Below, one piece after another: positions 44,112 through 59,733 of a stretch of 64,000 nucleotides of DNA. The stretch is from a virus: positions 1-64,000 of IMG/VR virus record IMGVR_UViG_3300005688_000028; one strand, written 5' to 3'. A model generated the notes under the pieces. That model worked only from the letters and a program-made list of their open reading frames with translations, did not search any database and was not told the origin of the DNA. A program made the position numbers and the translations under genes. Position 1 is the first letter of the stretch; every line of letters starts with the position of its first letter.

Positions 44112-44137
44112 GGTCTCTCTCCCTGGGTTCGTCTGGG

Positions 44138-44912: not shown

Positions 44913-45647
44913 TCACAGCGCCGCGATGCGCTCGAGCGCCGCGACGAGGGTTCGTTCGGGCTGCCTGCTGAGCAGGCGAAGCGCCTTGAGGTGAGCCGTC
45001 GGAATGCCCTCGGTGAGCGCGAGTCGGCGCTGAACCTCGGGGTCGTAGGCGAGCCTCATGGCGGCTTTCATGAGGTCGGCCGGCAGTCCGGCGGGCATGC
45101 CCATCTGAGCCCCGAAGGCCGCTGCGAGCGGCATCGCGAAACTCGACGGATTGCGCGGGGCGGCGTCGATTGCCACCGTGCGGATCGTGCAGCGCGTGAT
45201 GACGTTGCCCCGCATCTCGTTGATGGAGCCCTCGACGCTGAAGCCGAGCCCCTGCCCGCGCGGGCCTTTGCAGAGGGCTTGGTGCTGCGCCCGGACCTGC
45301 TGCGCGAGCGGCAGATCCTTGAGCAACACGACCTCGATCATGTTGCCCTTGACGCCCTTGAAGAGCCCGAAGGTCCGCTTGACGCCCTGGGCGCAAACGC
45401 GGTCCGCTGAATAGGGGTGCTTGTAGTGGACGACGCCGCGCTGGTCGTACTCGGTCCAGTCCGCGCCGTCCTGAAGCAAGACCTGGCCGTCGGCGTCCAG
45501 AAACTCGCTCGTCGCGAGCCCCTTGAGCAGCCACGCCGGGTCAATCTCGCCCGGCCCCAATGCCTTCTGAAGCGCCTCCTCGGGAAGCGCCTCACACTCG
45601 CCCCAGAGGAGCGGGAAGGTCATCGTGTCTGTCGCCATGGCAACCAT
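44913..45647 (-). CDS. prohead protease
   Basis: G.ATSE..D.DG..L.Q.G.D; Y.H; LGFSVEG; VAI...P.N. Confidence 0.88.
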   Translation of the reverse strand: MVAMATDTMTFPLLWGECEALPEEALQKALGPGEIDPAWLLKGLATSEFLDADGQVLLQDGADWTEYDQRGVVHYKHPYSADRVCAQGVKRTFGLFKGVKGNMIEVVLLKDLPLAQQVRAQHQALCKGPRGQGLGFSVEGSINEMRGNVITRCTIRTVAIDAAPRNPSSFAMPLAAAFGAQMGMPAGLPADLMKAAMRLAYDPEVQRRLALTEGIPTAHLKALRLLSRQPERTLVAALERIAAL

Positions 45648-45703: not shown

Positions 45704-48700
45704 TTACGCCTTGAGCGAGCCCTTCCAGAGCGTCACGAACGCGCGGAGCGCCTTCGTCATCTTGGCCTTGGGCGTCTTGGCCTCACGCTGCTTCATGTGG
45801 CTCTCCGCGGTGCTCGGGCTCATGTTGCGCTCGGGGTTCTTGTAGAGCACATCCTTGACGGCTTCGCGGAGGTAGCGGGCGGCCTTGTCGTGGTCGCCCG
45901 CCGCGTGGAGCTCGGCGGCCTTCTTCGTGTGCTCGTGCGCGTCAAGGCGGTCGTGTTCCTTGCCTTTGAGGCCGTAGCGCTCTTTCGCCTCGGCGACGCG
46001 GTCGGCGTGGGATGGGGCGGGCGTGGCCTCGGGCTTTCGCTCGACCTCGGGGGCTTCGCGAAGTGGCGGCAGCCGATCGGGCTTCGGTGACGAGGACGGC
46101 CACATGGCTTGTGCCGTCGCTGGTCTTTCGCGAAGTGGCGGGGTCCTGCCCGCGCTATCCTGCTTCAACGTCCCGGGGCGGTCCGGCTTCTGCGCGGACT
46201 CCACCGCCTTCGGCTCGGGCTTGTCGGCCTGCTTCGCCGCATGGGTCTTCACGGACTCGTCGCGGTCGACGTCAGCCTTGGGCTTCTGCGGCATCTCGCC
46301 CCGCGCCTTCAGCTCTTTGATGCCCCGGTGCAGCGTCTCCAGCTCGCGGTCCTCGCTCGCATACGGCGTCCCGGGCCGGCGCTTCTGCTCCTTCTGCGCA
46401 ATGGCGATCTGGTTGTCGTGGTCGCCGATGGCGTTGGCGCCCCATGCCGAGTCATGGCTGTCATGCTTGGGGTCGGTCAGCGCCGCGTACGCGAAGTCGG
46501 CGTCGGCGCTTCGCTTGCTCGGCGCGGGGCTCTGCGCGGCCTGGGGCTTCTCCGTCTTCGCAGACGGCTCGTTGGGGTCGTCTCCGGGCTTGAACGCCGC
46601 GATCGTCGCGTCGCCGTATGGGCCGCGCTTCGTTCCGAGCATTCCGGGCGGAAAGTTGCCGCGAGAGCGATTGATCATCCATGGGAGGCCGGGCCTCTTG
46701 GTCCACACCACATGCGACGCCTCATGGCCCGGCCCCATGTCCTTCGGATGCACGGCGCGCGGATGGGCCTTCGTGGCCTCGTCGGCCTGACGGATGTCTT
46801 CGTCGGACCAGTGTTCATGGATCTGCCCGGTGCGCTTGTCCGCCTTCGGCTTCTCGACCTTGGACTTCTTCGGCTTGTCCGCCGGCGCCTCGATCTTGTG
46901 CCCAACCTTCGCGGCCTCGGCCCGGATCTTCTCCGCGCCCTTGTGGTTGCCCGCCGCGACGGCCTCGCCATGCTCACGCGTCAGCTTCGCCTTGTGCGCG
47001 TCGAGAGCGCCCTTGTGGTGCTCGGAGAGCTTCGCGGCGAGCTCGTCATGGGTCATCTTGACCTTCTTCCCACCGCTCGAGTGCGAGACATGCAGCTTGC
47101 CGTCCTTGACTCCATGGATCGTGTAGTGGCCCGCGCCGTGGGCGAAGCTGGCGCCCTCTTTGAAGTGCTCGGCGTTGTGGACGCCGCCCCCGTGCTGGAC
47201 GCGGTAGAAGTAGCGGTAAATCTGCGCGCCCTGGCTCCCGTCTTTCTTCGTGCGGTACTTGCCCGTCGGGACTTTTTTCAGAAACGGCCCTCTGGACCCC
47301 GCCTTCCACAGCGCCGGCCCCACGAAGAGGCGTGCCAGCTCGGAACGCATCTCCACGACCTCGGCCCCGCGCGGCGTGATGAGAGCGCCACCCTTCGCGA
47401 GCGAAGCGCCCCATGCGAACTCGCCCAGCTTGCTCGCCATCGGGACCCAGGTGCCCTTGCCGAGCAATCGCTGCCAGAATCCGCGCTTCTTCTCGCCCAC
47501 GGGGCGGCCCTTGTGGTCGCGGTATTCCGCACCATCCTTGACCTGCGTCTTGCTCCAATACTTCCCCGTCTTGGGGCTCGCTTCGGGCGCGACCGAGAGG
47601 CCGCCCGCCTTGCCCTGGTGCTCGGCTTGGTGTCTGTCGTAGTCCGCGCGTGGCATCTTGCGCTTGTACTTGTCCCCGGGCTCGTGGATGTAAACGTGTT
47701 CCTTGCCCACGCTGATGTGTGCGTGGCGCGTCTGGTGGCGCCCATCGGGATACCAACTTTCCCACCCGTTCCCGACGCGCTTGTGCCACCCGCCGTGCTT
47801 GCTGTTCGGAATCGGCGTGAAGCCGGCCGGAGCGCGCTGTCCCTTTTCCATCGGCTTGCCCTCCATGATGTCGCCGAGGTCGATCACCCCGTCCTCGCCC
47901 GGCACCAGCTCGCCATCGGCCCAGAGCAGGCTGTCGTGAGCGGTGTTGTCCCCGGTGCTCAGCGCCTTCTTCATCGCGATCCCGTCCTTCGCGAGCAGCG
48001 CCCGCACGTCGTTGGCCGTGATCTCCTGGCCGCTCACACGAATCTTCCAGTCCTGCGCCGGGTTGAGCCGATAGCTCACATAACTGGACGTCGGAAGGTG
48101 CTGGCCCAGGATCTCCTTCGCCAGCGTGATCGGGGCCTTCGTGGTGGGTCGGTGCTCGCCGTTCTCGGCCGGCTCGAGCTCCACCGAATGCACGCGTACC
48201 GCGTGGACGTAGATCGTCCCCGGCTCGGGCGGGTTCTCCTTCGGCCCGGTGTAGTTGGTCTCGTCGCCCCGGTAGACGTAGGCGCCCCGGACCTTCTTGC
48301 CGTCGATCTCGAGCGGCCTCAGTCCGGTCTCGCGGTCGTGCTCGCGGGCGAGGCTGCGCTCCAATGACTCGCGCATCTCGCGGAGCGCCGTGTCGATGTG
48401 CTCTTGCGTGATGGGGATCGGCGTCCCGTCCTTATCCCAGCCCGCCGACTTCAGAGCCTTCTCGACGAGGCTCTTGGGCATCGTGTCGAGGGCCTTGTAG
48501 GAGTCTTGGAGCATCTGGCCGTAGTCGAAGCCGAACACGACCTGGTCCTGCACCTTCGCGTCGCCGTAGACCTTCTTCTCGGCCCCGCGCCCCGCCTCCT
48601 TGCCGACCTTCTTGACCGTGACGGCCATGAAGCGCTCGGGGGGCTGGTCCTTGACCCAATGGCCCAGCGGATAGCCCGTGAAGTCCACCGGCACGTCCTT

Positions 48701-49945
48701 GGGCCGCGGCCCCCACTCCTCCCACGGCTTATTGCCATCGCCACCACCCCCCGAAGAGCCACCACCGCCCGCCGGGGGCTTCGGGGGCTCAGGAGGCTTC
48801 GCCGAGTCGGCCTTCGGTGCCTCGGGCATCTTCTCCTCGACCTTCTCCTCGGCCGGGAGCGGAGGCGGCTCCGTGTTCGTCGGGACACCGCGCGCCTTCA
48901 TCTCGGCAAGAATCCGGTCGACGTGCTTCTGCGTCCCGTACTTCTTCGCGTCCCTCAGCTCGGCGTGAAGCCTCGCGGCGACCTCAGTCTTGCGGGTGTC
49001 GATCTTGGCCCCGTGGTGGGCCTTGAGGCGGGTCGCCAGCTCGTCGTGGGTCAGGTGCTCCGTGACGCCCGGCTTGCCCGAATGTGTCACCTTCAGCTTG
49101 CCGTCCTTCACGGCATGGATGGTGTACTCGCCGCGCTCATGCGCGAACGTCGCCCCGGCCTTGAAGTCGTCCCTGTTGTCGACGCCGCCGCCCTGGTCGA
49201 CCCGGTAGAAGTAGCGGTAGATCGGCGCGCCGGCCGACCCGTCTTTCTTCGTGCGGAACTTGCCCGTGGGGACCTTCTTGACGTAGGTGCCACCGACGGC
49301 CCCCTTGTGCTTCATCAGCGCGTCGGGCCGGAAGAGGCGATGCAGGTCCAGCGGAAGCGCCATGACGCCGTGGCGGTAGCGCGCCCCCTTCACCATGGAC
49401 GCATCCCAGAGGGCCGCGCCGAACGATTCGTCGAGCGGCACCCACACCGCGCCCGGCTGGTCCGGGTCAAGCTGGCGGGCGACGCCAGCGGTCAGGAGCG
49501 CGTCGCCGGTCTCGACGAAGCTCACCGGCTCACCGCCCGGCATGCCGTCTTCGAGGTGCGAGCGGAGCATCCACGCCGCCTTGGCGTGGGCCACGGCATG
49601 GCGGGTCATGAGGTCCAGGGTCGGGACGTCTCGCTCGCTCGCGAGGGCGAGCGCGGCGCAGTCCGCCTCGAGCCCGGAGCGGACCGTCGCGAGCATCGAG
49701 AGCATGGCCTGTGTGTCATCGGGAAGGGCCGACGCACCGGGGATGGCTGTCACGCCCAAGATGACGCGGACGCCCTTCTGCCGGATGCGCTCGGCGACCT
49801 CGTCGACCATGTCGCCCAGCGCCTCGTACTCGTCGCCGAAGAGGCCGTGGAGCTGCGCGAACGTGGGGCCGGTGACGTTCCAGTGGAACGACTGCGCGAG
49901 GTCGCGCGCGGCGATGAGCTTCGCGAGGATGGTGTCGAGAGCCAT
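45704..49945 (-). CDS. polyvalent head protein: N-terminal Dps domain plus two YRYFY modules and unknown domains
   Basis: FHWNVTGPTFAQLHGLF..Y.....VDEVAERI...KAAWML.S; modules at about 49013-49318 and 47014-47311. Confidence 0.8.
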   Translation of the reverse strand: MALDTILAKLIAARDLAQSFHWNVTGPTFAQLHGLFGDEYEALGDMVDEVAERIRQKGVRVILGVTAIPGASALPDDTQAMLSMLATVRSGLEADCAALALASERDVPTLDLMTRHAVAHAKAAWMLRSHLEDGMPGGEPVSFVETGDALLTAGVARQLDPDQPGAVWVPLDESFGAALWDASMVKGARYRHGVMALPLDLHRLFRPDALMKHKGAVGGTYVKKVPTGKFRTKKDGSAGAPIYRYFYRVDQGGGVDNRDDFKAGATFAHERGEYTIHAVKDGKLKVTHSGKPGVTEHLTHDELATRLKAHHGAKIDTRKTEVAARLHAELRDAKKYGTQKHVDRILAEMKARGVPTNTEPPPLPAEEKVEEKMPEAPKADSAKPPEPPKPPAGGGGSSGGGGDGNKPWEEWGPRPKDVPVDFTGYPLGHWVKDQPPERFMAVTVKKVGKEAGRGAEKKVYGDAKVQDQVVFGFDYGQMLQDSYKALDTMPKSLVEKALKSAGWDKDGTPIPITQEHIDTALREMRESLERSLAREHDRETGLRPLEIDGKKVRGAYVYRGDETNYTGPKENPPEPGTIYVHAVRVHSVELEPAENGEHRPTTKAPITLAKEILGQHLPTSSYVSYRLNPAQDWKIRVSGQEITANDVRALLAKDGIAMKKALSTGDNTAHDSLLWADGELVPGEDGVIDLGDIMEGKPMEKGQRAPAGFTPIPNSKHGGWHKRVGNGWESWYPDGRHQTRHAHISVGKEHVYIHEPGDKYKRKMPRADYDRHQAEHQGKAGGLSVAPEASPKTGKYWSKTQVKDGAEYRDHKGRPVGEKKRGFWQRLLGKGTWVPMASKLGEFAWGASLAKGGALITPRGAEVVEMRSELARLFVGPALWKAGSRGPFLKKVPTGKYRTKKDGSQGAQIYRYFYRVQHGGGVHNAEHFKEGASFAHGAGHYTIHGVKDGKLHVSHSSGGKKVKMTHDELAAKLSEHHKGALDAHKAKLTREHGEAVAAGNHKGAEKIRAEAAKVGHKIEAPADKPKKSKVEKPKADKRTGQIHEHWSDEDIRQADEATKAHPRAVHPKDMGPGHEASHVVWTKRPGLPWMINRSRGNFPPGMLGTKRGPYGDATIAAFKPGDDPNEPSAKTEKPQAAQSPAPSKRSADADFAYAALTDPKHDSHDSAWGANAIGDHDNQIAIAQKEQKRRPGTPYASEDRELETLHRGIKELKARGEMPQKPKADVDRDESVKTHAAKQADKPEPKAVESAQKPDRPGTLKQDSAGRTPPLRERPATAQAMWPSSSPKPDRLPPLREAPEVERKPEATPAPSHADRVAEAKERYGLKGKEHDRLDAHEHTKKAAELHAAGDHDKAARYLREAVKDVLYKNPERNMSPSTAESHMKQREAKTPKAKMTKALRAFVTLWKGSLKA

Positions 49946-49946
49946 G

Positions 49947-51824
49947 CTAGATCCTCATGGGCATGATGATGTGGCGCTCGCCGTCGGTCCGGTGAAGGTC
50001 GAGCGGGCCATACTGGCCGCCGTGCGACACCCGAAGCGTCACCGGCCCCTTGTGGCCGACGAGCGCGTCTTGCAGGTACTTGGCGTTGACGGCGATCTGA
50101 CCCTTGTCGCTGCCGGCCATCCAGTCGCCGCCGTCCTTGGCCGCCTTGTGCGTCTTGGCGTGGACCTTCAGGTCATCCGGGGCCTGGTGCTCGTGATCGG
50201 CGTGAGTCCGCAGGCTGGCGTGGAAACCTCCGTCGGCCGTGTGCGTGAACAGGATCTGCGGCGGGATCGACTTCGCGACCTTGTTGGTCTTGTGGTGCTC
50301 CTTCGCGGCGTCGATGAGTGCCTGGAGCGACTTGGTATCGAACGAGTGCTCCGAGGCCGCGAAGTCGGTGGTCGGGACGATGACGGCCCGGTGCCCGTCG
50401 GTCGCATACGCGAACTTCCCGTCGGCGTGGACGCCCGCGAGGTTCGGGCGCGTCGAGTCCTTACTCGCAAAGGTCGTGAGGCGCTTGACGTCCGCCTCTT
50501 TGGGCGTGTGGTCCTTGTGGGCATGCACGGGCTTGTCGGGAAGCTCTTTGGCCGCCTCGACGGCCTTCTTGACCTTGTCGACCGTGGCATCGGAGACGGA
50601 CGAGGGGCGGGCTTTGGACTCATCCGCCTTCGGGGTGGTTGTTCCGCCTCGGCGGAACAACGACGACACGACCTCATCAGGCTCGCCAGACTCGTCATCA
50701 CGAGACGCTTGGCTCTCTCCGTGCAGCTTACTGAATCGCGCACTCTCCGCCCCGCTCAGGGCGTAGAAGTGAGATCCGTCCGGTGCCAGCGCGACGGGTC
50801 CGCCGTTCCTGTCGGCGGGGCGGTATCCTGCCTCATGCAGTGCCCCGACCATTTCGGCGCGGGTCATCTGCTGGCCCTTGAACCGAACCTCTTTTTCGAG
50901 GTGGGTGTCGGAACGCTTCTGGCGCGCAGACTCAAGAGCCTTGTCGCGCTTCGCACGGGCCTCCTCTTGCGCCTCGGGCGACTTGCGGCGGGCGACCTCG
51001 CGCTCCTTCTCCTTCCTGGCCTCATCACGCCTGCGGCTGAACTCACCCCCGGAGATATGGTCGGCGATGGAAGCCACGCCGAACTTGACGCCAAGCTCCT
51101 TCGCGGTCGCCCGCATGGCGGGGCCATCAATACCAGCCGCGCCCCGGCTCGCGGCGTCCGTCATGGACTTTGCTCGCTTGGACACCTCTTCGTCCGATAG
51201 GCCGGGCTGCGTGCGCTTGATGTGCTTCGCATAGACCTTCTCGAAGGACGCCCGGGCGCCCTCTGCCCCCTGCTCCACATGCCCCGCGTCAGCCGCTCGC
51301 TTCTTCGCCGCGGCGATCGTCTTCTCCGAGGCCCCATGCTTCTTGGCCTCCTCCAAGTCGGCGAGGGCCTGCTTCTTGGCCTTCTCGCGCTTCTCGGCGA
51401 CCTTGGCGTCGTCCTCCTTACGGGCCTCGGCGTGCTCGCGATGGAGCATCGTGGCGAGGGCGTCCTTGTGGATTTTGTGCTCGGTCCCGGTCTCGTCGTG
51501 ACGCACAGTGACGTGCCCGTCGCCATGGTCGTGCGTGACCTCGAAGTGCCCGTGCTCGCCCCCGTCCTTCATCCTGAAGGCGGCGCCCACCTTCATCTCG
51601 TCGTGGTGGCCGAGCCCGGAGCCGCCGATCGTGCGGTAGAAGTACCGATACCGCTGCTTGCCGGTCTTCGTGACCTTGCCCGGGATGGGGACCCTGCGCA
51701 GGTACTTGTGCGCCTTGCCCTTGGCAAGTGCGCTTAGGATGGCCTTCGCCATGAAGGCAGGAACGGTGCGCTCGGGCGCGAGCGCCTTCACCAAGGCTGC
51801 CAGTGCTTTCGTCGACATGCTCAC
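49947..51824 (-). CDS. polyvalent head protein: YRYFY module plus C-terminal beta-clamp-like fragment
   Basis: FASKDSTRPNLAGV...ATDGHR...VNAKYL.DAL...IIMPMRI. Confidence 0.8.
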   Translation of the reverse strand: MSMSTKALAALVKALAPERTVPAFMAKAILSALAKGKAHKYLRRVPIPGKVTKTGKQRYRYFYRTIGGSGLGHHDEMKVGAAFRMKDGGEHGHFEVTHDHGDGHVTVRHDETGTEHKIHKDALATMLHREHAEARKEDDAKVAEKREKAKKQALADLEEAKKHGASEKTIAAAKKRAADAGHVEQGAEGARASFEKVYAKHIKRTQPGLSDEEVSKRAKSMTDAASRGAAGIDGPAMRATAKELGVKFGVASIADHISGGEFSRRRDEARKEKEREVARRKSPEAQEEARAKRDKALESARQKRSDTHLEKEVRFKGQQMTRAEMVGALHEAGYRPADRNGGPVALAPDGSHFYALSGAESARFSKLHGESQASRDDESGEPDEVVSSLFRRGGTTTPKADESKARPSSVSDATVDKVKKAVEAAKELPDKPVHAHKDHTPKEADVKRLTTFASKDSTRPNLAGVHADGKFAYATDGHRAVIVPTTDFAASEHSFDTKSLQALIDAAKEHHKTNKVAKSIPPQILFTHTADGGFHASLRTHADHEHQAPDDLKVHAKTHKAAKDGGDWMAGSDKGQIAVNAKYLQDALVGHKGPVTLRVSHGGQYGPLDLHRTDGERHIIMPMRI

Positions 51825-51864
51825 CTCGTCAGGCCCGCATTGTGGGCTGGTGGCGGGGCGGGGG

Positions 51865-51874
51865 GTGAGCTTTC
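51865..51874 (-). promoter_or_regulatory. late-promoter box GAAAGCTCAC
   Basis: exact; CACAAT -10; short leader containing GAGG. Confidence 0.72.
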
Positions 51875-54800
51875 ATCGGAGGAGTCGGGCGAGGCGCCCG
51901 AAGGCCCGGGTGGCCTTCTCCAGCCGTCCGGCCTCGTGGTCCCGCACCATGGCGATGACACCAGCCCAAAGATCATCGCCTCGTTCGGCCTTTTGATGCT
52001 GGCGACCATCGGGCTTCGTGATGATGATGTTGGTATGGTCGCCGCGCGAGTCGAGACTTAGGCGCGACCCGTCGCTCAGGCCGACCTCGTTCTTGACCCC
52101 AAACACAAGCCGCAACTTGTCGGGCGTCAGAGGTAGTGCCTTGCCGTCACTGTCAACGAGATGCACGCCTTTCGGCGATCTTGGGGCCTTCGGCTTCACG
52201 GGCTTCACGGGCTCGACCTTGATGGCGCGACCCTGCTCGTTGACTCGCCCCTCGACATAGGCGGCCCTGCGAGCCTTTGCCGCCCTCAGCTCGGCGACCG
52301 CCTCGACGTGCCGCTTCGCGGCGTCGATGCTCGCGTCCATGCGGCGCTCAGCGGACCTTGTCGAGCCTCCGCGCTGCCCGGTCGGCCTCATGCTCCCGGC
52401 GCCGAGCGGGAAGGCTTCGGCCATCGCCTTCGAGCGCTGGGTGTCGAACGGGCCTCCCCGGGCCACCTCGCGCTCGAGGCGGGCGATCTTCTCGTCGAGC
52501 TTCGCGGTGTGGGCGGGGTCGTGGCCCTCGGACGGGACCTTGGCGTGCTCTGGAAACAGATCATGAATCTCCAGAGCGCCCCGCACCGCCATGGCCTCAT
52601 CCGCGCGCCCCGCGAGCGCGTTCCCTGTCTGCGCGCGGCGCTGACTCTGGCTGGTCATGGATGTAGTTGCCTGAATGGCGGCGTGATGCTGCGATGCGTG
52701 CTTTTGGGCTTCTCTCGTGGCGACACCGAGCATTTTTTGCAGTTCGTGCTTGGTCTTGGACCTAGCAAGCATCTTCATCCACGGAGAATACCAATCATCG
52801 TAGTCAACATCGTCGCGGCCGTACTTCCTGGCACCCCCGCCCGATGTTGCGGGGTCGCGGCCCTCGGACGGCGTGACCGTGGCGACGGGAGGCGCCTTCG
52901 TGACCACCACCGTCCGCGTGGCGACCCCCGTGGAGTTGTCGCTGTCCTTGAACGAGCCCTCGGGGTTCTTCTCGCTCGTGCCGCCGTTGGCCTCGAGCCA
53001 TTCGCGGAACGCCTGCGCCTTCTTGTCCGAGCGGAAGAACGGCCCTTCTGACATGATGGCGACGAGCTTACCGCCCGGCTTCAGGTTGCGCTCGAAGGCG
53101 TGTCGGACGTGCTCGATGTCCTGGCCGTCATCGAAGGGCGGGTTCATCACGACCTTGTCGTAGGTCTCGGCGTGATCGGTGGCGTCGTGGCCGACCACCT
53201 TGTGGCCCTTGAGGCTCAGCACGTCTCGGAGGCCGCTGTGCTGCTCCAGAACATGCACGTCGCCACCCTGCTCGCGCGCGAGGTCGGCCAGCGAGCCCTT
53301 GCCGGCCGACGGCTCGAGGACCTTCTCGCCGGGCTTGATGTCGGCTAGCTGCATCACGCGGTCTGCGAGCGGCTTTGGGGTCGGGAAGTAGCCGGGGATC
53401 TTGAGCCCCACGAGGGCGCGCTCGGCCGCCTTGATGGGGTCGGCCTTGGGCTTGCCGGCGCCGCGCGCCAGCTCGACGTACTCGCGAAGGGCGGCGCGAA
53501 GCTGCGGGAGCGACTTGATCCCCATGCCCTCGCTGGCGCGCTTCCAGGTGGTCAACTGGTCGCGCACGTCATCGGCCGCGAAAGTCTCGACGCGGCGCAA
53601 GCGACCGGCGTCCGACAGCGCTTTGAAGTCTTCGCGCTCCTGCTCGGTGCTGGCCTTCACCTGCCAGTCCCGTTCGCCCAACTGAGCGATGCGCTTGAGC
53701 ACGCGAGCCGCTGCCTGCTTCGCGCCCGGAACGTCTTTGAGCGCCTGCGCGAGCCCCTTCAGGTTGTCGCGATGAACGGACGGCTCGGGCGGGCGGGCGT
53801 GCTCGATGTCCTCGGGCGTGACCGCGCGGTGGCTCGTCTCGTTGTGGTCTGCCTTGCCGCCCGCCTCGCGCGTCGCTCGGTCTCGGTCGTACTTCGCTTG
53901 GCGCAAGATGTTGTCCAGCATCTCGACGTGGGCGCGCGTCTTGATGCCCCAAAGGTGCTTCGTGGACCCGGCCTCTTGCGCGTCGGCGATGAGCCTCATC
54001 CGGCTCGCGACCGCCTGCTCACCCATGGCCTGCGCTTCGGCGCTCCCCGCCATGTTGGCGCGACGGGCGGTGTTGACCTTGCGGTCCGCGCTCAGGCTCT
54101 CTTGGGCTCGGGCATGGGCGTTGTCGGCCTGCTCTCGGAGTCGGGCGGGGGCGTTCCCGTGGAGCGGGCCGGGCTTCTCGGGCTCGGTGACGGGCTCGGC
54201 GGCCTGTGCGGCCTCTCCGAAGCCCCCGAACTTGTCCGCGAACTGGCGGGCTGCGGCATCGGTCTTGAAAACGAAGCCCGGGATTGCGCCGTTGCCCCGA
54301 AAGCTCGAGTAGTAGCCGCCGATCGACTTCGCGTGAGCGTTGGCCTTGGCGTATTCGTCCGGGGCGAGGCGGTCCGCAAGCTGCACGGTCCAGATGTTGT
54401 GGCCGTGCTTCGTGTGCTTCCCGGGGATCACCTTCGCAGTCGTCTCAGTAGCGAGCGCCGAGCCCGCAAGGGTGGTGCGCTCTTGCGCGGCCTTTGCGCG
54501 CGCCGCATGGGCGTCTTCGTGTTCTTTCTGGGCCTGCGCTCGCGCGTCCTCGGCCACGAGCTCGTCATAGCGAACGCGCTGCTCAGGCGTGAGGCTGCGT
54601 TCGCCCTCGCGCGAGAGCGAGATCCGTGTTTTGAAGTCGGCGAGCGTCTTGGGCTCGATCACCGCTCCGATACGGGCCTTGTGCTCCTCGATGGCCTTCT
54701 TGCGACGTGCGGAGTAGGCCGCGATAGCCTCGTCGGTGAGCTTGTCGACCTCGCGCGTGATTGCGGCGTCGTAGGTCTCGCTGAATGGCGACCACTGCGT

Positions 54801-56162
54801 TGACGACGAGACGTGGAAGCTGCCCAGGATGCTGTGCCATGCCGATTCGACAAGCCGGTCCTTCTTCTCGTCGGCGTAGGCTCGACTACCAACGATGCGC
54901 TGCAACTCGGGTTTGGTGAGCTTGGCGAGCTGCGCCATGATAGCCGCCTTGTTCGCCACCGTTGCATCGAACAACCGGCGCACCTCAGCGGCAGTGATGG
55001 TGGCGTCGTTGATGCGCTGAACCATGGCGTCCACGCCGATGGACTCCATCAAACCTTGAGCGGTCTTCTCATCGGGGGCGGGCTTCTTTGGGGCCTCCCT
55101 CTTCACCTCCCGCGCAGCCTCCTCGGCCTTCGTCGGCAGCCCCAGCCGCGCCCGGTGCTTGTCGGTCCCGTACACCGCCGCCTCCGCGCGGTCGGCCTCG
55201 AGCCGCTTCGTCGCTCGCTCCTTCTTCTCGGCCTCGTGCTTCTCGATGCCGGCCCGGTGCTCGGCATGCAGCATCGCGGAGAGCTCGGCCTTCGTGACGG
55301 TCCGGCTCTGGCCGTTCTCGTCGTGCTCAATCGTCAGCCGGTCCCCGTCCACGGCCTTGATGTGCCAGTGGCCGCCGTGGGCCATGAAGCCCGCGCCCTC
55401 GACAAAGTGCTCCTGCGCGTGGACGCCGCCGGACCCGCGCGCGACGTGGTAGAAGTAGCGGTAACGGGGCGTCCCCTTCTTCGTGAACTTCCCGGGGATC
55501 GGCACGCGCTTGATGTAGCGGTGCGCCTTGCCCTTCATGAGCTGCGAGAAGAACGCGAGGCGCCCGTAGGCTTCGGGGAGGAGGAGCGAGCCCGGCGGAA
55601 GGCCCGCGAGCGCCTTCTTGAGCGCCTTCCCGGCGTTGTTGGGGTCAGCGATCTTGGCGCGGAAGTCGTCGATGCTCATGGTCGTGTGTCCCCCGTAGAA
55701 GCCGGGCTTCGTGTACTGCTTGCGGTAGCAGGCCAGCGCCTCGGCGACGCTCGGGAAGCCCAGCATGACCTTCTGCTCATCGTGCTCGCCGGTCTCGGGA
55801 ACCCGCTGGTCCACTACTACGACCACGTCAGACTCGAGGGCGTCACCGACGTAGACGTCGAGGCGGTCGCCATCCATGCCGCGGGCTCCCATGACACCAG
55901 CGGCCCCGCGGGCGTGTGACCTCACCTCGCCATAGTGGGCCTGCATCGTGACCCGCCACGGCGTGCCGTTGGCGTCGACACCCTCGCGCACGTCGCCCTT
56001 GCGCTGCTCGATGTCGATCGGGATGCCCTGGAAGACCAGCGAGGCCACGAACGGGAACTCCGAACGGTTCGGCGACGGCGGCGGCATGAGGCCGGGCGAG
56101 GTTTCGCCGCGGCGGACGAGCAGGGCAGAGAGGCGGCGCGCGGCGTGGTCGAAACGGTCCAT
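51873..56162 (-). CDS. polyvalent head protein: inorganic-pyrophosphatase-like domain, YRYFY module, amino-type (probably N6-adenine) DNA methyltransferase
   Basis: IE..KG..R.G....G..W...M..HYG...G.DGD.LDVY.G...DE.K.MLGF; YFPTP, VLEPSAG.G, VMNPPF. Confidence 0.85.
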   Translation of the reverse strand: MDRFDHAARRLSALLVRRGETSPGLMPPPSPNRSEFPFVASLVFQGIPIDIEQRKGDVREGVDANGTPWRVTMQAHYGEVRSHARGAAGVMGARGMDGDRLDVYVGDALESDVVVVVDQRVPETGEHDEQKVMLGFPSVAEALACYRKQYTKPGFYGGHTTMSIDDFRAKIADPNNAGKALKKALAGLPPGSLLLPEAYGRLAFFSQLMKGKAHRYIKRVPIPGKFTKKGTPRYRYFYHVARGSGGVHAQEHFVEGAGFMAHGGHWHIKAVDGDRLTIEHDENGQSRTVTKAELSAMLHAEHRAGIEKHEAEKKERATKRLEADRAEAAVYGTDKHRARLGLPTKAEEAAREVKREAPKKPAPDEKTAQGLMESIGVDAMVQRINDATITAAEVRRLFDATVANKAAIMAQLAKLTKPELQRIVGSRAYADEKKDRLVESAWHSILGSFHVSSSTQWSPFSETYDAAITREVDKLTDEAIAAYSARRKKAIEEHKARIGAVIEPKTLADFKTRISLSREGERSLTPEQRVRYDELVAEDARAQAQKEHEDAHAARAKAAQERTTLAGSALATETTAKVIPGKHTKHGHNIWTVQLADRLAPDEYAKANAHAKSIGGYYSSFRGNGAIPGFVFKTDAAARQFADKFGGFGEAAQAAEPVTEPEKPGPLHGNAPARLREQADNAHARAQESLSADRKVNTARRANMAGSAEAQAMGEQAVASRMRLIADAQEAGSTKHLWGIKTRAHVEMLDNILRQAKYDRDRATREAGGKADHNETSHRAVTPEDIEHARPPEPSVHRDNLKGLAQALKDVPGAKQAAARVLKRIAQLGERDWQVKASTEQEREDFKALSDAGRLRRVETFAADDVRDQLTTWKRASEGMGIKSLPQLRAALREYVELARGAGKPKADPIKAAERALVGLKIPGYFPTPKPLADRVMQLADIKPGEKVLEPSAGKGSLADLAREQGGDVHVLEQHSGLRDVLSLKGHKVVGHDATDHAETYDKVVMNPPFDDGQDIEHVRHAFERNLKPGGKLVAIMSEGPFFRSDKKAQAFREWLEANGGTSEKNPEGSFKDSDNSTGVATRTVVVTKAPPVATVTPSEGRDPATSGGGARKYGRDDVDYDDWYSPWMKMLARSKTKHELQKMLGVATREAQKHASQHHAAIQATTSMTSQSQRRAQTGNALAGRADEAMAVRGALEIHDLFPEHAKVPSEGHDPAHTAKLDEKIARLEREVARGGPFDTQRSKAMAEAFPLGAGSMRPTGQRGGSTRSAERRMDASIDAAKRHVEAVAELRAAKARRAAYVEGRVNEQGRAIKVEPVKPVKPKAPRSPKGVHLVDSDGKALPLTPDKLRLVFGVKNEVGLSDGSRLSLDSRGDHTNIIITKPDGRQHQKAERGDDLWAGVIAMVRDHEAGRLEKATRAFGRLARLLR

Positions 56163-56182
56163 GCGGCGCAGCATCGCCGGGC

Positions 56183-58123
56183 CTACGCGGCGCGGTGAGC
56201 TTTCGTGCGCAGGCGCTTGAGCGCGAGGCGGGCGAAGGTGGCGAGCGAGCCCTTGTAGAGCTTCGACAACGCCGTCTCGGCCGCGTCTCGCGAAGCGAAG
56301 TACCAAGCCTTAGCATCCGGGTCCCAGCGGGCGCCCTTGGCCTTCAGCGCGTCCTTGTGGGCGAAGGTGTTACCGGCCACGCCCACGCGACCGCGCGACA
56401 ACGGAACCATCCTGAGACCGTGCTTCTCGCCAGGCGTTGAGGCGCTGCCGCTCGGGGCCTGCGGTGTGGCTGGCTTGGGCGCAGGATTGGACGCGGCCTT
56501 GTCGCCACCACCCTTGGCCTTGTCGGCCTCGGTGAGTTCGGCCCGTGGCTGCGGCGGAACCTTGGCCTTCTGGGCCTCTTTGAAGCGGAATATCGCCTTG
56601 TCCACCTCGGGCGTCAGGGTGGCCACCTTCAGGATGGTCCGGTCGTCGTCATATCCCAGGGTCTTGGTCGCATAGACCTTGTCGTTCTCGCGGTCGATGT
56701 AGAAGGTCCGGCCGCCGGACTTGGCGGACTCGCCATCGGTGAGGCGCTCGGCGTTGGCGGGCGGCCTCCATCTGCCGTTCTCGTCCGAGAGGCCGCCGCC
56801 GATGTCGACCTTGTGAGCCGGAACGACGCGGTCCAGCGCCTCGCGGTTGCCGGTGATGGCCCGGTCCAACAGCGCCCGGTCGGGATGCCACTGCGAGCTT
56901 TCTACCGCCTGTCTCGCATGATAGGCCGCATCGTAGGGCAACCGCTTGGACTCGTCTGCGATGTAGGCCTCGGCCTCCGCGATGTTCCGCTCGTGATTGG
57001 CCTTGAAGTAGGACGACTCCTCTTTCTCGAGCGCCTTGCGTTGGCGTTCGATGAACAGCTTTGCCAGAGCGATTCCGTCCTCACGCTGGATCTCAGCGGC
57101 GGGCTTGTCGGCGACTCGGTCGAACAGCTCCTTGTTGGCGTCGTAGTCGCGAAGCCTGTCTCGAACCAAGGTGAGGCTCGGGATCGCACGCATCCGCGTC
57201 TCGTGGCTCACGTCGAGGTCGCGCCAAGAGCCATCCGCCGCCGCGATGCTCTCGTAGAGCTTCTTGTGCTCTGCGATGGCGTTCTTCGTGCTCTCCCATT
57301 CGCGATACGTCCGAGCCTCTTCCGGCGTCGCGCGGCGCATGGTGGCGGTCACCACCGCATGAGCATCCGCGAGGTGGTAGTCGCCCACGTCCTCCGACCA
57401 CTCGCGGTCCTGCTTGGAAAGGCGCTTGGTCCGACTCCCGACCACGACCCAGATGGACCCGTCCTTGCGCTTCTGGAAGTCTCCCGGCTCCGGCCCGGTG
57501 TCTTTGAACTGGACGGTCTCGTACTTCTCCGACGCTGGCTTCTGCGCCTCCGCAGCCTCTTTGCGCTGCCTCAATTCGTCCGCAGACAGAAGCTCATCCT
57601 CGGTCGCTCCGAAGCCCCGCGCCCGCTTCTCCGCGGCTTCGATCTGCTTCGCTGTGCCCAGCTTGCGGACCTCGTCGAGCTCGGCCAGGGCGCGCTTCTT
57701 CTTCGCCTCGCGGTCCTTCGCGGTCTCGGCCTCCTCGGCCTTGATGCCCTCGGCATGGTGGGCTTGCAGTCGCCTCACGAGCTCGTCTTTGTGGATGCGC
57801 TCCACCTTGCCCGACTCGTCGTGCTTCACCGTGAGGTGGCCGTCCTCGTGAACGTCCTCGATGTGGTAGTGGCCTCGCTTTCCCTCGTGCTCACCCGCGA
57901 AACCAGCGCCCTTGACCCAGTGCTCGGCGTTGTCGAGACCCTTGCCGCCCTTGGCCCCGGTGAGCTTGTAGAAGTAGCGATAGCGCTGCTTGCCGCTCTT
58001 CGTGAACTTGCCGGGGATCGGAACGCGCTTGATGTACTTGTGGTTGGCGCCCTTGATGAGCGCCATGAACATGAGCCGGCGGGCGACTCGCGGGTTGATC
58101 GGAAGCCAGATCCCCATGCTCAT
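56183..58123 (-). CDS. polyvalent head protein: YRYFY module plus small C-terminal GNTF..KD.LKA.GARWD domain
   Basis: LIKGANHKYIKRVPIPGK...RYRYFY; ATGA-coupled to portal. Confidence 0.75.
   Translation of the reverse strand: MSMGIWLPINPRVARRLMFMALIKGANHKYIKRVPIPGKFTKSGKQRYRYFYKLTGAKGGKGLDNAEHWVKGAGFAGEHEGKRGHYHIEDVHEDGHLTVKHDESGKVERIHKDELVRRLQAHHAEGIKAEEAETAKDREAKKKRALAELDEVRKLGTAKQIEAAEKRARGFGATEDELLSADELRQRKEAAEAQKPASEKYETVQFKDTGPEPGDFQKRKDGSIWVVVGSRTKRLSKQDREWSEDVGDYHLADAHAVVTATMRRATPEEARTYREWESTKNAIAEHKKLYESIAAADGSWRDLDVSHETRMRAIPSLTLVRDRLRDYDANKELFDRVADKPAAEIQREDGIALAKLFIERQRKALEKEESSYFKANHERNIAEAEAYIADESKRLPYDAAYHARQAVESSQWHPDRALLDRAITGNREALDRVVPAHKVDIGGGLSDENGRWRPPANAERLTDGESAKSGGRTFYIDRENDKVYATKTLGYDDDRTILKVATLTPEVDKAIFRFKEAQKAKVPPQPRAELTEADKAKGGGDKAASNPAPKPATPQAPSGSASTPGEKHGLRMVPLSRGRVGVAGNTFAHKDALKAKGARWDPDAKAWYFASRDAAETALSKLYKGSLATFARLALKRLRTKAHRAA
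56195..56204 (-). promoter_or_regulatory. late-promoter box GAAAGCTCAC (inside the 3' end of the upstream gene)
   Basis: exact; GATGCT -10; 32 nt to ATG 56162. Confidence 0.72.
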
Positions 58124-59733
58124 TCTCCCTCGTCGAGACCCGGCTCGCCCTGGCCCGGCAGCCCAGCATCCATGCCCGGCACGCCCTCACCACCCTCACC
58201 TGGCATGCCGCCCATCGCGGCCGGGTCCTCGGTAGGCGTGAAGGTCCCAAGCGCCTGTAGGACGGTGCTCGACAGCGGCACGCTCAGCGCCAGAATGATT
58301 CGGTCGCGCGTCTTGTCGTCGACCTCGATCTTGTTGGCCTTGAAGTAAGCCTTGTCGATGACGGGCTTCCCGAGGCGTGACCGGCTCTCGTTCGACGAGA
58401 AGATCCCCTCGGCCTTCTTCTCGAGTTCGATCTGGGAAAGCTCCGACTCGGCGCCGTCGCCCGTGAAGCGGAACGCGAAGTCCTCATCCCAGCGGTAGAT
58501 CAGGCTCTCGTTGATGCTGTCCTCGAAGGCCGTCAGCATCGGGCGCAGGCCGAACATGCGCGAGAGCTGGATCTCGTCCTTCGGGTTCGCGCCCGACAGC
58601 GGGGCGCCCGCGCCCTTGTACTCGGGCAGGCCCACCTCGACGGGACGCATGTTCCAGTTGGCGGCCACGACCATCAGCTTGATGAGCATGAGGTCGGTGA
58701 ACTCCATGTCCTTGTTCGGGTGGGCGAGGTCGAGCTTCTCGATCCGCTCGCGGCTCGCCTCTGTGCCCCCGGGGCTGAACAGCGCCATCGCCATGCGGTG
58801 CGCGTTGTTGATGCCCTTGAGCTGCGCCGTCATCATCGCCTTGAAGGCGAGCCAGGTCTCTTTGTCGTAGTTGGCGAAGACGTTGAGCATGGTGCTCGCG
58901 TGCGTGCCGTTCCGAAAATAGACCTGATTGTAGTCGTCGGCCTCGATGTAGGCTTGCAGCGCGTCGTAAGCCTGCTGGATCTCCGGGTAGCCATACCCGA
59001 AGACCTCCATCTGCGTGCGCGGGCGGCGGACCACGCTCAGGATCTCGTCCTCGTGCCACGTCGCCACGACCCTATCGAGGCTCGGGAGCACCTGCACGAA
59101 GCTCCCCGAGTGATAGTTGAACTCGCCCGGCCCCTCCTGCTTCTTCGGCCGCCCTCGACGCACCCACGCCGCATCCAGCGCCCGGAAGGCCCGGGGCCGC
59201 CCGCCGTTCTCGTACTGGATTTCGGCGATGGCCCAATCGTAGGTCAGCGAGTCGTCCGCGAGCATGCCCATCGTGCGATGGAAGGGCTGCAAGCGGTTGA
59301 GCATCTTCTGGATTTCCGCGAACTCCTTGCGCGCGCCCTGGCTCACCTTCGCGTCGGGGTCTCGCATCCCGAGCTGGTATCCCGGCGTCCACTGGTCGCG
59401 CGCCGGCCGGCAGTGCTCGACGAACTGCTGCTGGCGCTTGCTCTTGAAGGGCGCGCAGATACTCCGGTCGGCCGCGGCGCGAAGCGTTCGGAACGGGAGC
59501 CAGCCCGCGCCCGGGTGGCCCATGACGGGCTTGTCGCCCGAGAAGAACTTGTATTCCTCGTAAGGGTCCCAATCCGCGCCCTTGAAGGCCGCATCGTCGC
59601 CCTCGTCGGAGCGGGTCTTCAACGGGCTCTCGGGCTCGCCCCGGACCGACATCGCAGACTCGCGGCGCGCCTTGAGAAGCGGGTTCTCAGCGTCCGAGCC
59701 AACGAGCAACCTGTGCAGAAACGAACGCGCCAT
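58120..59733 (-). CDS. portal protein
   Basis: D.LTYD...E; F.ALDA; GYGYPE; YN..YF.NG; G..NAH; KDMEF; P.EVG; GLRP.L...E..IN; NE.R..LG. Confidence 0.92.
   Translation of the reverse strand: MARSFLHRLLVGSDAENPLLKARRESAMSVRGEPESPLKTRSDEGDDAAFKGADWDPYEEYKFFSGDKPVMGHPGAGWLPFRTLRAAADRSICAPFKSKRQQQFVEHCRPARDQWTPGYQLGMRDPDAKVSQGARKEFAEIQKMLNRLQPFHRTMGMLADDSLTYDWAIAEIQYENGGRPRAFRALDAAWVRRGRPKKQEGPGEFNYHSGSFVQVLPSLDRVVATWHEDEILSVVRRPRTQMEVFGYGYPEIQQAYDALQAYIEADDYNQVYFRNGTHASTMLNVFANYDKETWLAFKAMMTAQLKGINNAHRMAMALFSPGGTEASRERIEKLDLAHPNKDMEFTDLMLIKLMVVAANWNMRPVEVGLPEYKGAGAPLSGANPKDEIQLSRMFGLRPMLTAFEDSINESLIYRWDEDFAFRFTGDGAESELSQIELEKKAEGIFSSNESRSRLGKPVIDKAYFKANKIEVDDKTRDRIILALSVPLSSTVLQALGTFTPTEDPAAMGGMPGEGGEGVPGMDAGLPGQGEPGLDEGE

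Follow-up and report, generated by a model that had tools for sequence, protein, structure and literature searches.

Polyvalent proteins, which join disparate domains in one polypeptide, have been described in phages and conjugative elements (Iyer, Burroughs, Anand, de Souza and Aravind 2017, PMC5512222). They are encoded among late/virion genes and are predicted to be packaged, injected and processed into units; the proposal is that an intrinsic zincin-like MPTase does the processing and that MuF fusions provide the virion association (PMC5512222). In T4, the internal proteins and Alt are basic head proteins with a capsid-targeting sequence (CTS), a short N-terminal propeptide of ~10-20 aa that targets them to the core and is then cut off by the protease gp21 at an (L/I)xE motif. 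Diverse cargo stands behind a shared tag, with no conserved folded module behind it and no polyproteins. In addition, Alt and gp21 are trimmed at the C-terminus.

The Dar proteins of P1 (DarA, Hdf, DarB, DdrA, DdrB, Ulx) are anti-restriction proteins packaged in the head. The prohead protease processes DarA, and DarB needs no more than its first 30 residues to be targeted to the capsid; incorporation is hierarchical, via DarA/Hdf bound to the capsid inner surface. Genes of the MuF/SPP1 gp7 type come immediately after the portal gene, and their products join an N-terminal domain for virion association to variable C-terminal cargo; SPP1 gp7 binds the portal and DNA. Furthermore, the ejection proteins of phiKZ-like giant phages (SPN3US gp53/gp54 paralogues, phiKZ inner-body proteins) are paralogous head proteins whose N-terminal propeptides (111-254 aa) are removed by the prohead protease at a defined motif; the phiKZ-type motif is S/A/G-x-E. 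A C-terminal propeptide on that protease has been proposed as its core-targeting signal.

Four large genes in the head-gene block

We analysed a window of 64,000 nucleotides (positions 1 to 64,000 of IMG/VR record IMGVR_UViG_3300005688_000028) from the 91.6-kb genome of an uncultivated, myovirus-like phage. We found that the gene order is portal, four large minus-strand genes, head maturation protease, scaffold and capsid protein (Table 1); a sequence-only reading of this DNA had placed the four genes between portal and prohead protease. The portal protein has an LLK↓A motif at residues 19-22 (the arrow marks the predicted cut), and the propeptide of the major capsid protein is predicted to end at LLK↓GS (residues 53-56).

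All four cargo proteins have a pI of 9.3-9.6. All-against-all BLAST similarity among them was confined to the module regions (E 1e-9 to 1e-36), as had been claimed. The cargo named earlier was also recovered, namely Ferritin/Dps (3e-12), InPase (1e-31), MTase and a clamp-like domain, and DUF5710 was found in addition (residues 587-616 of gene 1). Gene 2 runs from the InPase through a module and a region resembling F116-like phage virion proteins, which holds the MTase (38-40% identity, tblastn), to a C-terminal tail with LEK↓A. The clamp-like domain of gene 3 matched phrog_947 (E 5e-10) and the C-terminus of TIGR00663 (E 4e-4). Gene 4 consists of the Dps-like domain, a module, an uncharacterised region, a second module, a low-complexity region and a C-terminal LWK↓G. 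The Dps/ferritin-like domain has neither module nor leader ahead of it, and the N-terminus of gene 2 carries a leader-like stretch, ARRLSALLVRRG, without a module behind it.

Table 1. Features of the head-gene block, in window coordinates
Feature	Position	Strand	Remarks
Portal, 537 aa	58120..59733	-	PF04860 E 4.6e-16; phrog_12 E 1.7e-26
Cargo gene 1, 646 aa	56183..58123	-	leader, module, uncharacterised cargo, DUF5710, C-terminal tail (predicted cleavable)
Module copy 1	57605..58102	-	leader ARRLMFMAL, LIK↓G, basic hairpin, barrel, helices; E 5e-72
C-terminal tail of gene 1	56186..56260	-	LYK↓G, then basic amphipathic stretch
Cargo gene 2, 1433 aa	51873..56174	-	from ATG at 56174; ORF open to 56306
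InPase domain, polyvalent-protein type	55650..56036	-	upstream of module copy 2; PF18823 E 1e-31
Module copy 2	55086..55583	-	leader GRLAFFSQ, LMK↓G; E 1.3e-71
DNA methyltransferase domain of gene 2	52998..53372	-	PF13489 E 7e-6; phrog_15406 E 1.6e-183
Cargo gene 3, 625 aa	49947..51824	-	leader, module, uncharacterised region, clamp-like C-terminal domain
Module copy 3	51273..51770	-	LAK↓G; E 1.2e-68
Cargo gene 4, 1413 aa	45704..49945	-
Dps/ferritin-like domain of gene 4	49547..49942	-	PF00210 E 3.3e-12; NF006975 E 2.8e-9
Module copy 4	48842..49339	-	leader HRLFRPDA, LMKHKG; E 2e-64
Module copy 5	46841..47338	-	leader ARLFVGPA, LWK↓A; E 3e-60
Prohead (head maturation) protease, 244 aa	44913..45647	-	phrog_1028
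Scaffold-position protein, 253 aa	44138..44899	-	nine (L/M)xK(G/A) motifs
Major capsid protein, 522 aa	42573..44141	-	phrog_752

The repeated module and its family

YRYFY occurs exactly five times, at residue 48 of gene 1, 282 of gene 2, 59 of gene 3 and 243/910 of gene 4. Aligned over 166 aa, the five copies are 39-46% identical and share 25 invariant columns. The module had been put at ~100 aa, and this length must be corrected, as the conserved unit covers ~165 aa and contains, in order, a leader, the cut motif, a basic hairpin, a small barrel, a long helix and a helical hairpin. The four leaders reported before (ARRLMFMAL, GRLAFFSQL, HRLFRPDAL, ARLFVGPAL) are all present, and so is an LxK(G/A)-type motif ahead of each copy (LIKG, LMKG, LAKG, LMKHKG, LWKA), of which LMKHKG in copy 4 deviates from the clean form. 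The leader is amphipathic, ~20 aa long, with the family consensus ~[LIV]-P-x-[WFA]-[LMY]-[GA]...L-x-K. The hairpin (HKYIKRVP...YRYFY) is very basic, with 8-10 K/R per 30 aa. In the structure model, the predicted cut site falls between the low-confidence leader helix and the first strand.

The best match of the barrel was the SETDB1 Tudor domain, a weak one (Z 6.0, 57 aa, rmsd 3.1), and TDRD3 gave a Foldseek probability of 1.00 over ~50 aa, yet an E of ~0.1. Tudor domains, CarD and the TraI translocation-signal domain were among the matches (Z 5.0-6.0). Such weak matches to a model would suit a generic small barrel; they lie below the safe level for a shared-fold call and are silent on function.

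In agreement with the view that the module belongs to no named family, no match was found in Pfam, NCBIfam, PHROGs or PDB, and the LPD models present in Pfam did not match it either. Four module variants also had no match among 50,697 cultured-phage records. Computation nevertheless recovered a widespread family with 611 representative clusters (50% identity) at E<=1e-3 and 449 at E<=1e-10. Many of its proteins carry 2-4 module copies, and they reach 3608 aa. The cargo behind the module varies, as had been expected: the partner domains belong to the repertoire of polyvalent proteins (InPase, LPD1, DdrB-ParB, MTase, SNF2/helicase and DUF5710), and PF18796, PF18763 and PF18974 are present in family members. 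The cassette architecture is plain in one protein (P0005), where each cargo has its own module ahead of it (module 2 before MTase, module 3 before SNF2, module 4 before DUF5710). Cassettes also occur as 2-4 separate adjacent genes (loci L039, L037/38, L045 and L027).

The minimal form of the family contains the leader, cut motif and hairpin only, without the barrel; it is found N-terminally in proteins that are otherwise unrelated and whose genes occupy the same place between portal and protease. In addition, many members end in a second cut motif and a short basic amphipathic tail, and a C-terminal cut motif is present in 43% of the family proteins versus 7.5% in the background. This tail, predicted to be cleavable, is a second conserved element. 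Both the tail and the hairpin-only form had been missed earlier.

The predicted cut motif and the prohead protease

We found that [hydrophobic]-x-K-[GAS] stands at the expected place in 223 of the 226 module copies (121 N-terminal, with a median P1 at residue 33, and 105 internal), and P1 is Lys in every copy in which the motif was located (223/226). The pattern [LM].K[GA] was computed to be enriched in the scaffold (9 observed versus 0.46 expected, shuffle maximum 3), in the protease (5 versus 0.39) and in the four core head proteins (17 versus 1.9), whereas 31 other genes of the genome had 2 versus 5.5 expected. Genome-wide, likely-coding ORFs with at least two motifs all lie within 42.5-58.2 kb, with one exception. 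Similar excesses were seen in scaffold-position genes of distant loci (L041, 6 versus 0.69; L026, 5 versus 0.49; L006, 5 versus 0.54; L038, 6 versus 0.52). Furthermore, an N-terminal LxK↓(G/A/S) marks a short propeptide in all homologous capsid proteins, and the C-terminus of the protease contains HLK↓ALRLLS.

The window's own protease had no direct Pfam match, including PF04586. However, its homologue in L006 (BLAST E 7e-7) scored 25.4 bits for Peptidase_S78 against a cut-off of 21, so this link is transitive, via that homologue. His77 and Ser137 are invariant in nine homologues (alignment A5). It is known that the HK97 capsid protein is cut at K103/S104 (PMC10275583). Since the motif is enriched in the scaffold, the protease and the capsid-protein N-terminus, (L/M)-x-K↓(G/A) is read as the putative cleavage motif of an HK97-type protease, and the counts support the view that LxK(G/A) behaves as the prohead-protease motif of this lineage, here and in distant relatives.

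On the other hand, the motif is as conserved as core residues, with an invariant K and ~73% conservation of the L before it; therefore the motif could be a structural element and not a cut site. The proteins would then be packaged yet uncut at the module, with L-x-K-G/A as part of the module fold or binding surface, and the module would be an internal repeat that binds DNA or the capsid at several points. Such big proteins would stay intact in the head, like N4 vRNAP, which is packaged unprocessed (Iyer et al., PMC5512222), and perhaps like mature P1 DarB. We regard this as unlikely, since the tetrapeptide is enriched 10-20 fold in two proteins that lack the module, the scaffold and the protease, and in distant relatives it is the mark of capsid-protein propeptides. 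In addition, the sparing of flexible low-confidence sites in co-packaged proteins would be hard to explain, and fused and split cassette forms are interchangeable.

A proposed loading route and the role of the module

Anti-defence-type enzymes stand behind a repeated module that follows a predicted cut site, and the four genes therefore look like capsid-loaded cargo polyproteins. We consider it reasonably probable that they encode virion-packaged polyvalent effector polyproteins built from cassettes. Each cassette would comprise a leader, a cut site (L/M/V/I)-x-K↓(G/A/S), a basic hairpin, an SH3/Tudor-like barrel, a long helix, a helical hairpin and variable cargo. The precursors would co-assemble into the procapsid beside the scaffold core, and the HK97-type (Ser/His) prohead protease would cut them at L-x-K↓, the same motif that it may use on the capsid-protein propeptide, the scaffold and itself. 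Leaders and tails would thereby be removed, and each cargo would be freed with the basic module as its new N-terminus. Cargoes without a module (Dps-like, InPase) could enter on the polyprotein and be released inside the head, and the units would presumably be ejected along with the DNA, to act at an early stage of infection.

We infer that the cargo proteins are cleaved, packaged and ejected, and that the leader, the hairpin or the C-terminal tail is the targeting element. The module itself may be a capsid targeter or a DNA tether. Its most likely role is that of a DNA-binding adaptor for head incorporation or retention, yet this is the weakest step of the explanation. The module could instead have no part in packaging and serve in the host after ejection as an effector or anchoring domain, targeting being left to the leader and/or the C-terminal tail. 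The module's partner might be, for example, the end of the incoming DNA or a host target, much as RNA polymerase is the partner of the Tudor-like CarD. The Tudor-like barrel, with its matches to Tudor domains, CarD and TraI, would suit such a role, as would the persistence of the module on the mature unit after the predicted cut; moreover, the cargoes without a module (Dps, InPase) would be packaged anyway, and gene 2 begins with a leader-like stretch that no module follows. However, the fold scores are within the range of chance arrangements, and the hairpin-only forms, which keep leader, cut motif and hairpin together, suit a packaging tag better. We give this alternative a low probability.

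His residues are also conserved in the module (in HKY and GHxH, and one in a helix), most copies have an HDE triplet, and no MPTase was found in the genome, so that the module might be a cis-acting autoprotease or other enzyme that frees the units in place of that domain. This is very improbable: whole subfamilies have YDD or HS instead of HDE, a ~60-aa SH3-like barrel with a hairpin is no known protease fold, and the hairpin-only forms retain the cut motif without the barrel. Furthermore, the motifs in the scaffold and capsid protein call for an enzyme that acts in trans, and a neighbouring gene encodes one.

Genomic context of related loci

The packaging reading had been tied to confinement of the module to portal-protease intervals. 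This holds as the usual position: ~15 of the ~20 classifiable related loci adjoin the portal and/or protease gene, and ~15 keep the synteny portal, module genes, protease, scaffold and capsid protein. However, the confinement is not strict. In L015 the module genes are found on the upstream side of the portal, and in 4-5 loci they lie outside the head block, among baseplate genes, for instance between a phrog_975 baseplate protein or tail lysin and a gp6-like wedge gene (phrog_6, E 1e-30 to 1e-45) in L011/L013, L031, L027 and L024. That the module marks virion proteins generally, some members being tail/baseplate components or loaded through the tail, would fit these latter loci but is highly unlikely, as gene order by itself assigns no virion location, the ~15 other loci adjoin portal and/or protease, and the members in baseplate clusters keep a leader and LLK(G/S), sensible only inside a prohead with the protease.

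Comparison with known systems

As in polyvalent proteins, disparate domains are joined here (InPase and MTase in gene 2; Dps-like and two modules in gene 4), and hallmark domains are present (InPase PF18823; DdrB-ParB, LPD1, MTase with helicase, and DUF5710 in relatives). The genes likewise lie among late/virion genes, with products predicted to be packaged, injected and processed. The zincin-like MPTase, common but not universal in polyvalent proteins, is missing here: PF18818 had no match in the 91.6-kb genome, the four proteins included, though control genomes respond. Instead, the units are set apart by a repeated module with prohead-protease motifs ahead of it.

Like the T4 internal proteins and Alt, the cargo proteins are basic, and their predicted short N-terminal propeptide ends in a motif which, at the sequence level, is common to the capsid protein, scaffold and protease. 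The trimmed C-termini of Alt and gp21 recall the C-terminal tail here. However, in place of (L/I)xE and a gp21-family protease we found a P1 Lys and a putative HK97-like protease, grouping with phrog_1028 and, via its homologue, with Peptidase_S78, and a 140-aa folded module is predicted to be kept on the cargo.

DarB-type MTase/helicase and DdrB-ParB domains recur in the module family, but the P1 Dar proteins lack a repeated shared module and do not resemble the module here in sequence. The MuF type shares the place next to the portal gene and the variable cargo, but it is not repeated within one protein and has no protease motifs ahead; Phage_Mu_F (PF04233) matched none of the five modules, even at E<=10, and nothing in the genome. 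Propeptide removal in phiKZ-like phages resembles the predicted cutting here, whereas their cut motif differs from L-x-K↓, the propeptides are long, and each gene encodes one protein without polyvalent enzyme cargoes.

The locus had been proposed as a candidate new system. It is not new in kind, because the strategy is already known from polyvalent virion proteins, T4 capsid-targeting sequences and P1 Dar; the module and its cassette logic are new.

Organization of the head gene cluster

The source record comprises 91,633 bp with direct terminal repeats, and the window (G+C content, 68%) is its first 64 kb. Four large genes were found between the portal gene and the head maturation protease gene, and the tail sheath gene is located beyond the capsid gene (see the table). 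The major capsid protein had no match among INPHARED phages. When gene 2 is read from the ATG at 56174, it encodes 1433 aa, which is the form recorded as the family protein P0015. Meanwhile, P0023, a family protein of 925 aa, spans the C-terminal two thirds of gene 4, module copy 5 included. Thus, a near-identical contig or a different gene call may split gene 4.

Positions of the features discussed in the text
Feature	Position	Strand	Remarks
543-aa ORF	62369-64000		no PHROG match
Thymidylate synthase gene	61171-62070	minus	phrog_85, E 4e-58; between packaging genes and portal
Portal	58120-59733	minus	PF04860, phrog_12
Gene 1	56183-58123	minus	646 aa
Gene 1, C-terminal tail	56186-56260	minus	
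Gene 2	51873-56306	minus	1477-aa translation
Gene 2, leader-like N-terminus	56040-56174	minus	
Gene 2, residues 427-1121	52998-55030	minus	F116-like match
Gene 2, C-terminal tail	51876-51923	minus	
Gene 3	49947-51824	minus	625 aa
Beta-clamp-C-terminus-like domain	49950-50525	minus	
Gene 4	45704-49945	minus	1413 aa
Dps/ferritin-like domain	49547-49942	minus	
Gene 4, C-terminal tail	45707-45730	minus	
Head maturation protease	44913-45647	minus	phrog_1028
Scaffold-position protein	44138-44899	minus	253 aa, acidic, helical
Major capsid protein	42573-44141	minus	phrog_752
Tail sheath	35267-37261	minus	
ORF with two (L/M)xK(G/A) motifs	84667-86268	plus	outside the window

The repeated module and its predicted fold

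The sequence-only reading had described five copies of a module with the motif YRYFY, and the translated genes bore out the count, the coordinates, the motifs preceding the copies (LIKG, LMKG, LAKG, LMKHKG, and LWKA), and the four similar leaders. The conserved repeat thus stands, but the proposed size of about 100 aa does not, and the conserved unit is longer. In an alignment, 166-aa slices of the five copies were 39-46% identical and had 25 invariant columns. BLAST among the four cargo proteins showed similarity confined to the module regions (E 1e-9 to 1e-36), and E values as low as 1e-36 rule out chance repeats. Furthermore, a profile built from the five copies found exactly the same five places genome-wide. 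A signal peptide was rejected for the leader because the leader is also found internally, and a divergent MuF domain was rejected for the module because the Pfam signal is absent.

The mean pLDDT of the AlphaFold2 models was 77.7 (whole unit) and 79.1 (core, 31-sequence alignment). The models begin with a leader helix of low confidence; the putative cut motif sits at a flexible joint, and a basic beta-hairpin, a barrel, and helices follow. The hairpin is long and very basic (8-10 K/R and 0-2 acidic residues per 30 aa), the barrel is predicted to be four-stranded and SH3/Tudor-like, and it is followed in the models by a helix of about 45 residues and a helical hairpin. In a VIA fold search, the core predicted alone matched the SETDB1 Tudor domain (Z 6.0), the TraI translocation-signal domain (5.5), and CarD (5.4), as generic small-barrel matches only, and no function was assigned from them. 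Foldseek gave no match to the module at E<=0.001 and the ESM Atlas no usable one, and the top structural match in BFVD was an uncultured-phage 'DdrB-like domain-containing protein'.

Cargo domains

The cargo assignments made from the sequence also hold: we found the Dps/ferritin-like, InPase, methyltransferase (MTase), and clamp-like C-terminal domains, and in addition DUF5710. The Dps/ferritin-like and beta-clamp-C-terminus-like domains are unusual payloads among predicted head cargo. All four cargo proteins have a pI of 9.3-9.6, as is usual for internal head proteins. The N-terminus of gene 2, AARRLSALLVRRG, resembles the module leaders (ARRLMFMALIKG), with Arg in place of Lys and with InPase directly after it and no module.

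Giant virion proteins of F116-like Pseudomonas phages, annotated as structural, PLxRFG, or internal virion proteins, share 38-40% identity with residues 427-1121 of gene 2. The match extends to 194 phage records and covers the cargo but not the module. Thus, the same cargo travels without the module in other packaging contexts. Taken together, the cargoes (Dps-like, InPase, MTase, clamp-like, DdrB-ParB, and SNF2) suggest that the incoming DNA is protected and modified early.

A putative cleavage motif of the prohead protease

Among 226 module copies from 179 family proteins, 223 had hydrophobic-x-K-(G/A/S) at the expected position, with Leu at P3 in about 73% of the copies. The copies were N-terminal in 121 cases (P1, the residue before the cut, at median residue 33) and internal in 105. 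We then counted [LM].K[GA] in the proteins of this genome independently of the module, with expectations from shuffled sequences. The motif was strongly enriched in the scaffold (9 observed vs 0.46 expected; shuffle maximum, 3) and the protease (5 vs 0.39), and the four core head proteins held 17 (1.9 expected) and the four cargo genes 16 (6.7 expected). The 31 other likely genes (9375 aa) held 2 vs 5.5 expected. The whole genome has 73 likely-coding ORFs; of those with at least two motifs, only one lies outside 42.5-58.2 kb. The sole two-motif ORF beyond this head block (0.27 motifs expected) may be a further protease substrate.

The same pattern was seen in distant relatives, whose portal, protease, and capsid protein are 22-36% identical to those of the window. 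Their scaffold-position genes held 6 motifs vs 0.69 expected in locus L041, 5 vs 0.49 in L026, 5 vs 0.54 in L006, and 6 vs 0.52 in L038. The capsid protein of the window carries LLK|GS at residues 53-56 (the bar marks the putative cut), and each homologous capsid protein has one N-terminal site (ALRK|S, DLRK|G, NLNK|A, ELNK|A, ALNK|A, or ELEK|A). In addition, the protease homologue of L006 matched Peptidase_S78 above the cut-off, and one His and one Ser are invariant across nine protease homologues; the protease alignment, run as a profile against the PDB, found no match. The capsid protein of HK97 is cleaved by HK97 itself at K103/S104 (PMC10275583). From the motif conservation, the enrichment in scaffold and protease, the capsid N-terminal sites, the S78 match of the L006 homologue, and the HK97 precedent, we conclude that L-x-K|(G/A/S) is the probable cleavage motif of the HK97-type prohead protease of this lineage, and that every module starts there. 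Real cutting at the module-proximal sites is what we infer from this.

The C-terminal tail

The motif (L/I/V/M)-x-K-(G/A/S), followed by a short basic amphipathic tail, occurs inside the last 30 residues of 73 of 171 family proteins (43%) vs 7.5% of internal 30-aa windows. The tails are of the type TLEK|ALR.F..L..R or K|GPFA.LL, and they are found in genes 1, 2, and 4 and in P0017, P0028, P0030, P0044, P0050, and other family proteins. Furthermore, the C-terminus of the protease, HLK|ALRLLS, resembles these tails. The C-terminal propeptide of the SPN3US protease has been proposed as a targeting signal, and that of the HK97 protease is said to have been likewise proposed by Duda et al. in 2013. 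By analogy with these propeptides, and given the likeness to the protease C-terminus, the tail may be a cleavable core-targeting signal and is as good a candidate for this role as the N-terminal leader.

Family size and genomic context

Searches of the five modules against Pfam, PHROGs, and PDB sequences gave nothing significant, and no NCBIfam model matched the module in the four whole cargo proteins, in agreement with the first impression that it is not a recognised named family. When 1.84 billion representatives were searched exhaustively with a profile, 611 proteins matched at E<=1e-3, of which 449 reached E<=1e-10; every name that the sources supply is 'hypothetical protein'. Meanwhile, tblastn gave no match for four module variants in INPHARED cultured phages or for one variant in PLSDB plasmids, and a literature string search with YRYFY, HKYIKRVP, and similar motifs returned unrelated matches only. 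The related-locus search with alignment A1 gave one weak locus in viral contigs, and that of genome contigs only 3 loci.

Of the 150 family proteins listed, 33 have 2-4 module copies. For instance, P0005 has its own module before every cargo (module 2 before MTase, 3 before SNF2 helicase, and 4 before DUF5710), and P0006 has InPase ahead of the module, as gene 2 does. Other phages encode the same cassettes as unfused neighboring genes, with four in L039, three each in L045 and L027, and two in L037/L038. The minimal form consists of a leader, the LxK cut motif, and the HKYIRRVP...Y.Y(F/Y)Y hairpin with unrelated sequence after it (L008:9932-11218, L009:9854-15058, L053-L059, L042:1916-2905, and L033:80-925). 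It occurs in Treponema-type low-GC loci, again in the portal-protease interval, and also in L042 and L033. Thus, the hairpin is a separable sub-module.

Context loci were found among metagenome loci by iterative searches with the portal, protease, and capsid protein of the window. In 15 listed loci (L006, L007, L017, L018, L020, L021, L026, L029, L038, L039/L040, L041, L042, L047, L049, and L050), the order was portal, module gene(s), protease, scaffold, and capsid protein, in full or, where the contig ends, in part. The module genes of L015 are upstream of the portal. In L011/L013, L031, L027, and L024, a module gene is flanked on one side by a gene for a baseplate protein or tail lysin and on the other by a gp6-like wedge gene, outside the head block (L013:7670-9046, L031:9998-10981, L027:3642-4910, and L024:4800-5996); these genes encode a subfamily of short module proteins (330-460 aa). 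The confinement to portal-protease intervals that had been proposed as a check is therefore the main placement but not a strict one; every classifiable context was a virion-gene cluster.

Proposed mechanism

Most likely, the precursors would enter the assembling procapsid by the leader and/or the C-terminal tail. The protease would cut at L-x-K|, removing leaders and tails and separating the cassettes, and each cargo would retain the basic module at its N-terminus. N-terminal cargoes without a module (Dps-like and InPase) would simply be released within the head. The candidate binding partners of the module are DNA, scaffold, capsid, and portal. In a more far-reaching reading, a large lineage of uncultivated phages with an HK97-type protease would possess a portable pack-and-release tag, made up of the leader, the L-x-K| site, the basic hairpin, and, in most cases, the Tudor-like barrel. 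Whatever protein stands behind the tag would be packaged into the procapsid and released by the prohead protease, and it would retain at its N-terminus a putative DNA- or capsid-binding adaptor for co-ejection. One effector payload could then be encoded interchangeably as a polyprotein or as an array of single-cassette genes, and the second, C-terminal cleavable tail, common to the protease, would be a core-targeting signal. We advance this more far-reaching reading only tentatively, with a confidence somewhat short of even.

If true, it would be a viral-polyprotein logic so far undescribed in tailed phages, and the processing of polyvalent proteins could fall to the capsid maturation protease instead of an intrinsic metallopeptidase, which would couple capsid maturation directly to effector release. 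It would also give a sequence rule for head-packaged, injected effectors in metagenomic phages (leader, L-x-K|G/A, and HKYIKRVP...YRYFY), and this rule could identify >600 protein clusters now all annotated hypothetical. The targeting sequences of T4 and P1 have already been used as protein-delivery tools, and a compact load-and-release tag would be a practical tool for protein delivery by phage particles.

Comparison with known systems

The strategy itself is already established. Its precedents are the capsid-targeting sequences of T4, which are cut at LxE, the DarA cleavage and the DarB N-terminal signal of phage P1, the propeptides of phiKZ-like ejection proteins, and the very concept of polyvalent proteins. 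By sequence match, the partner domains of the family (LPD1, DdrB-ParB, InPase, DUF5710, MTase, and SNF2/AAA_34 helicases) are the domain repertoire that Iyer et al. 2017 (PMC5512222) described for polyvalent proteins. The module could be an LPD domain of that paper outside Pfam, for example LPD4, the two having been compared via Pfam models only. Iyer et al. proposed one device for the processing of polyvalent proteins (MPTase) and another for their virion association (MuF). A search of the present genome found neither MPTase-PolyVal nor a MuF domain; thus, the protease sites and the module appear to stand in for both devices. What is new is a widespread, previously undescribed module, a putative adaptor. 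Further features are new as well: module repetition would mark the cassette boundaries, the motif of the capsid maturation protease would be used to delimit effector units, fused and split cassette forms would be interchangeable, and the C-terminal tail is shared.
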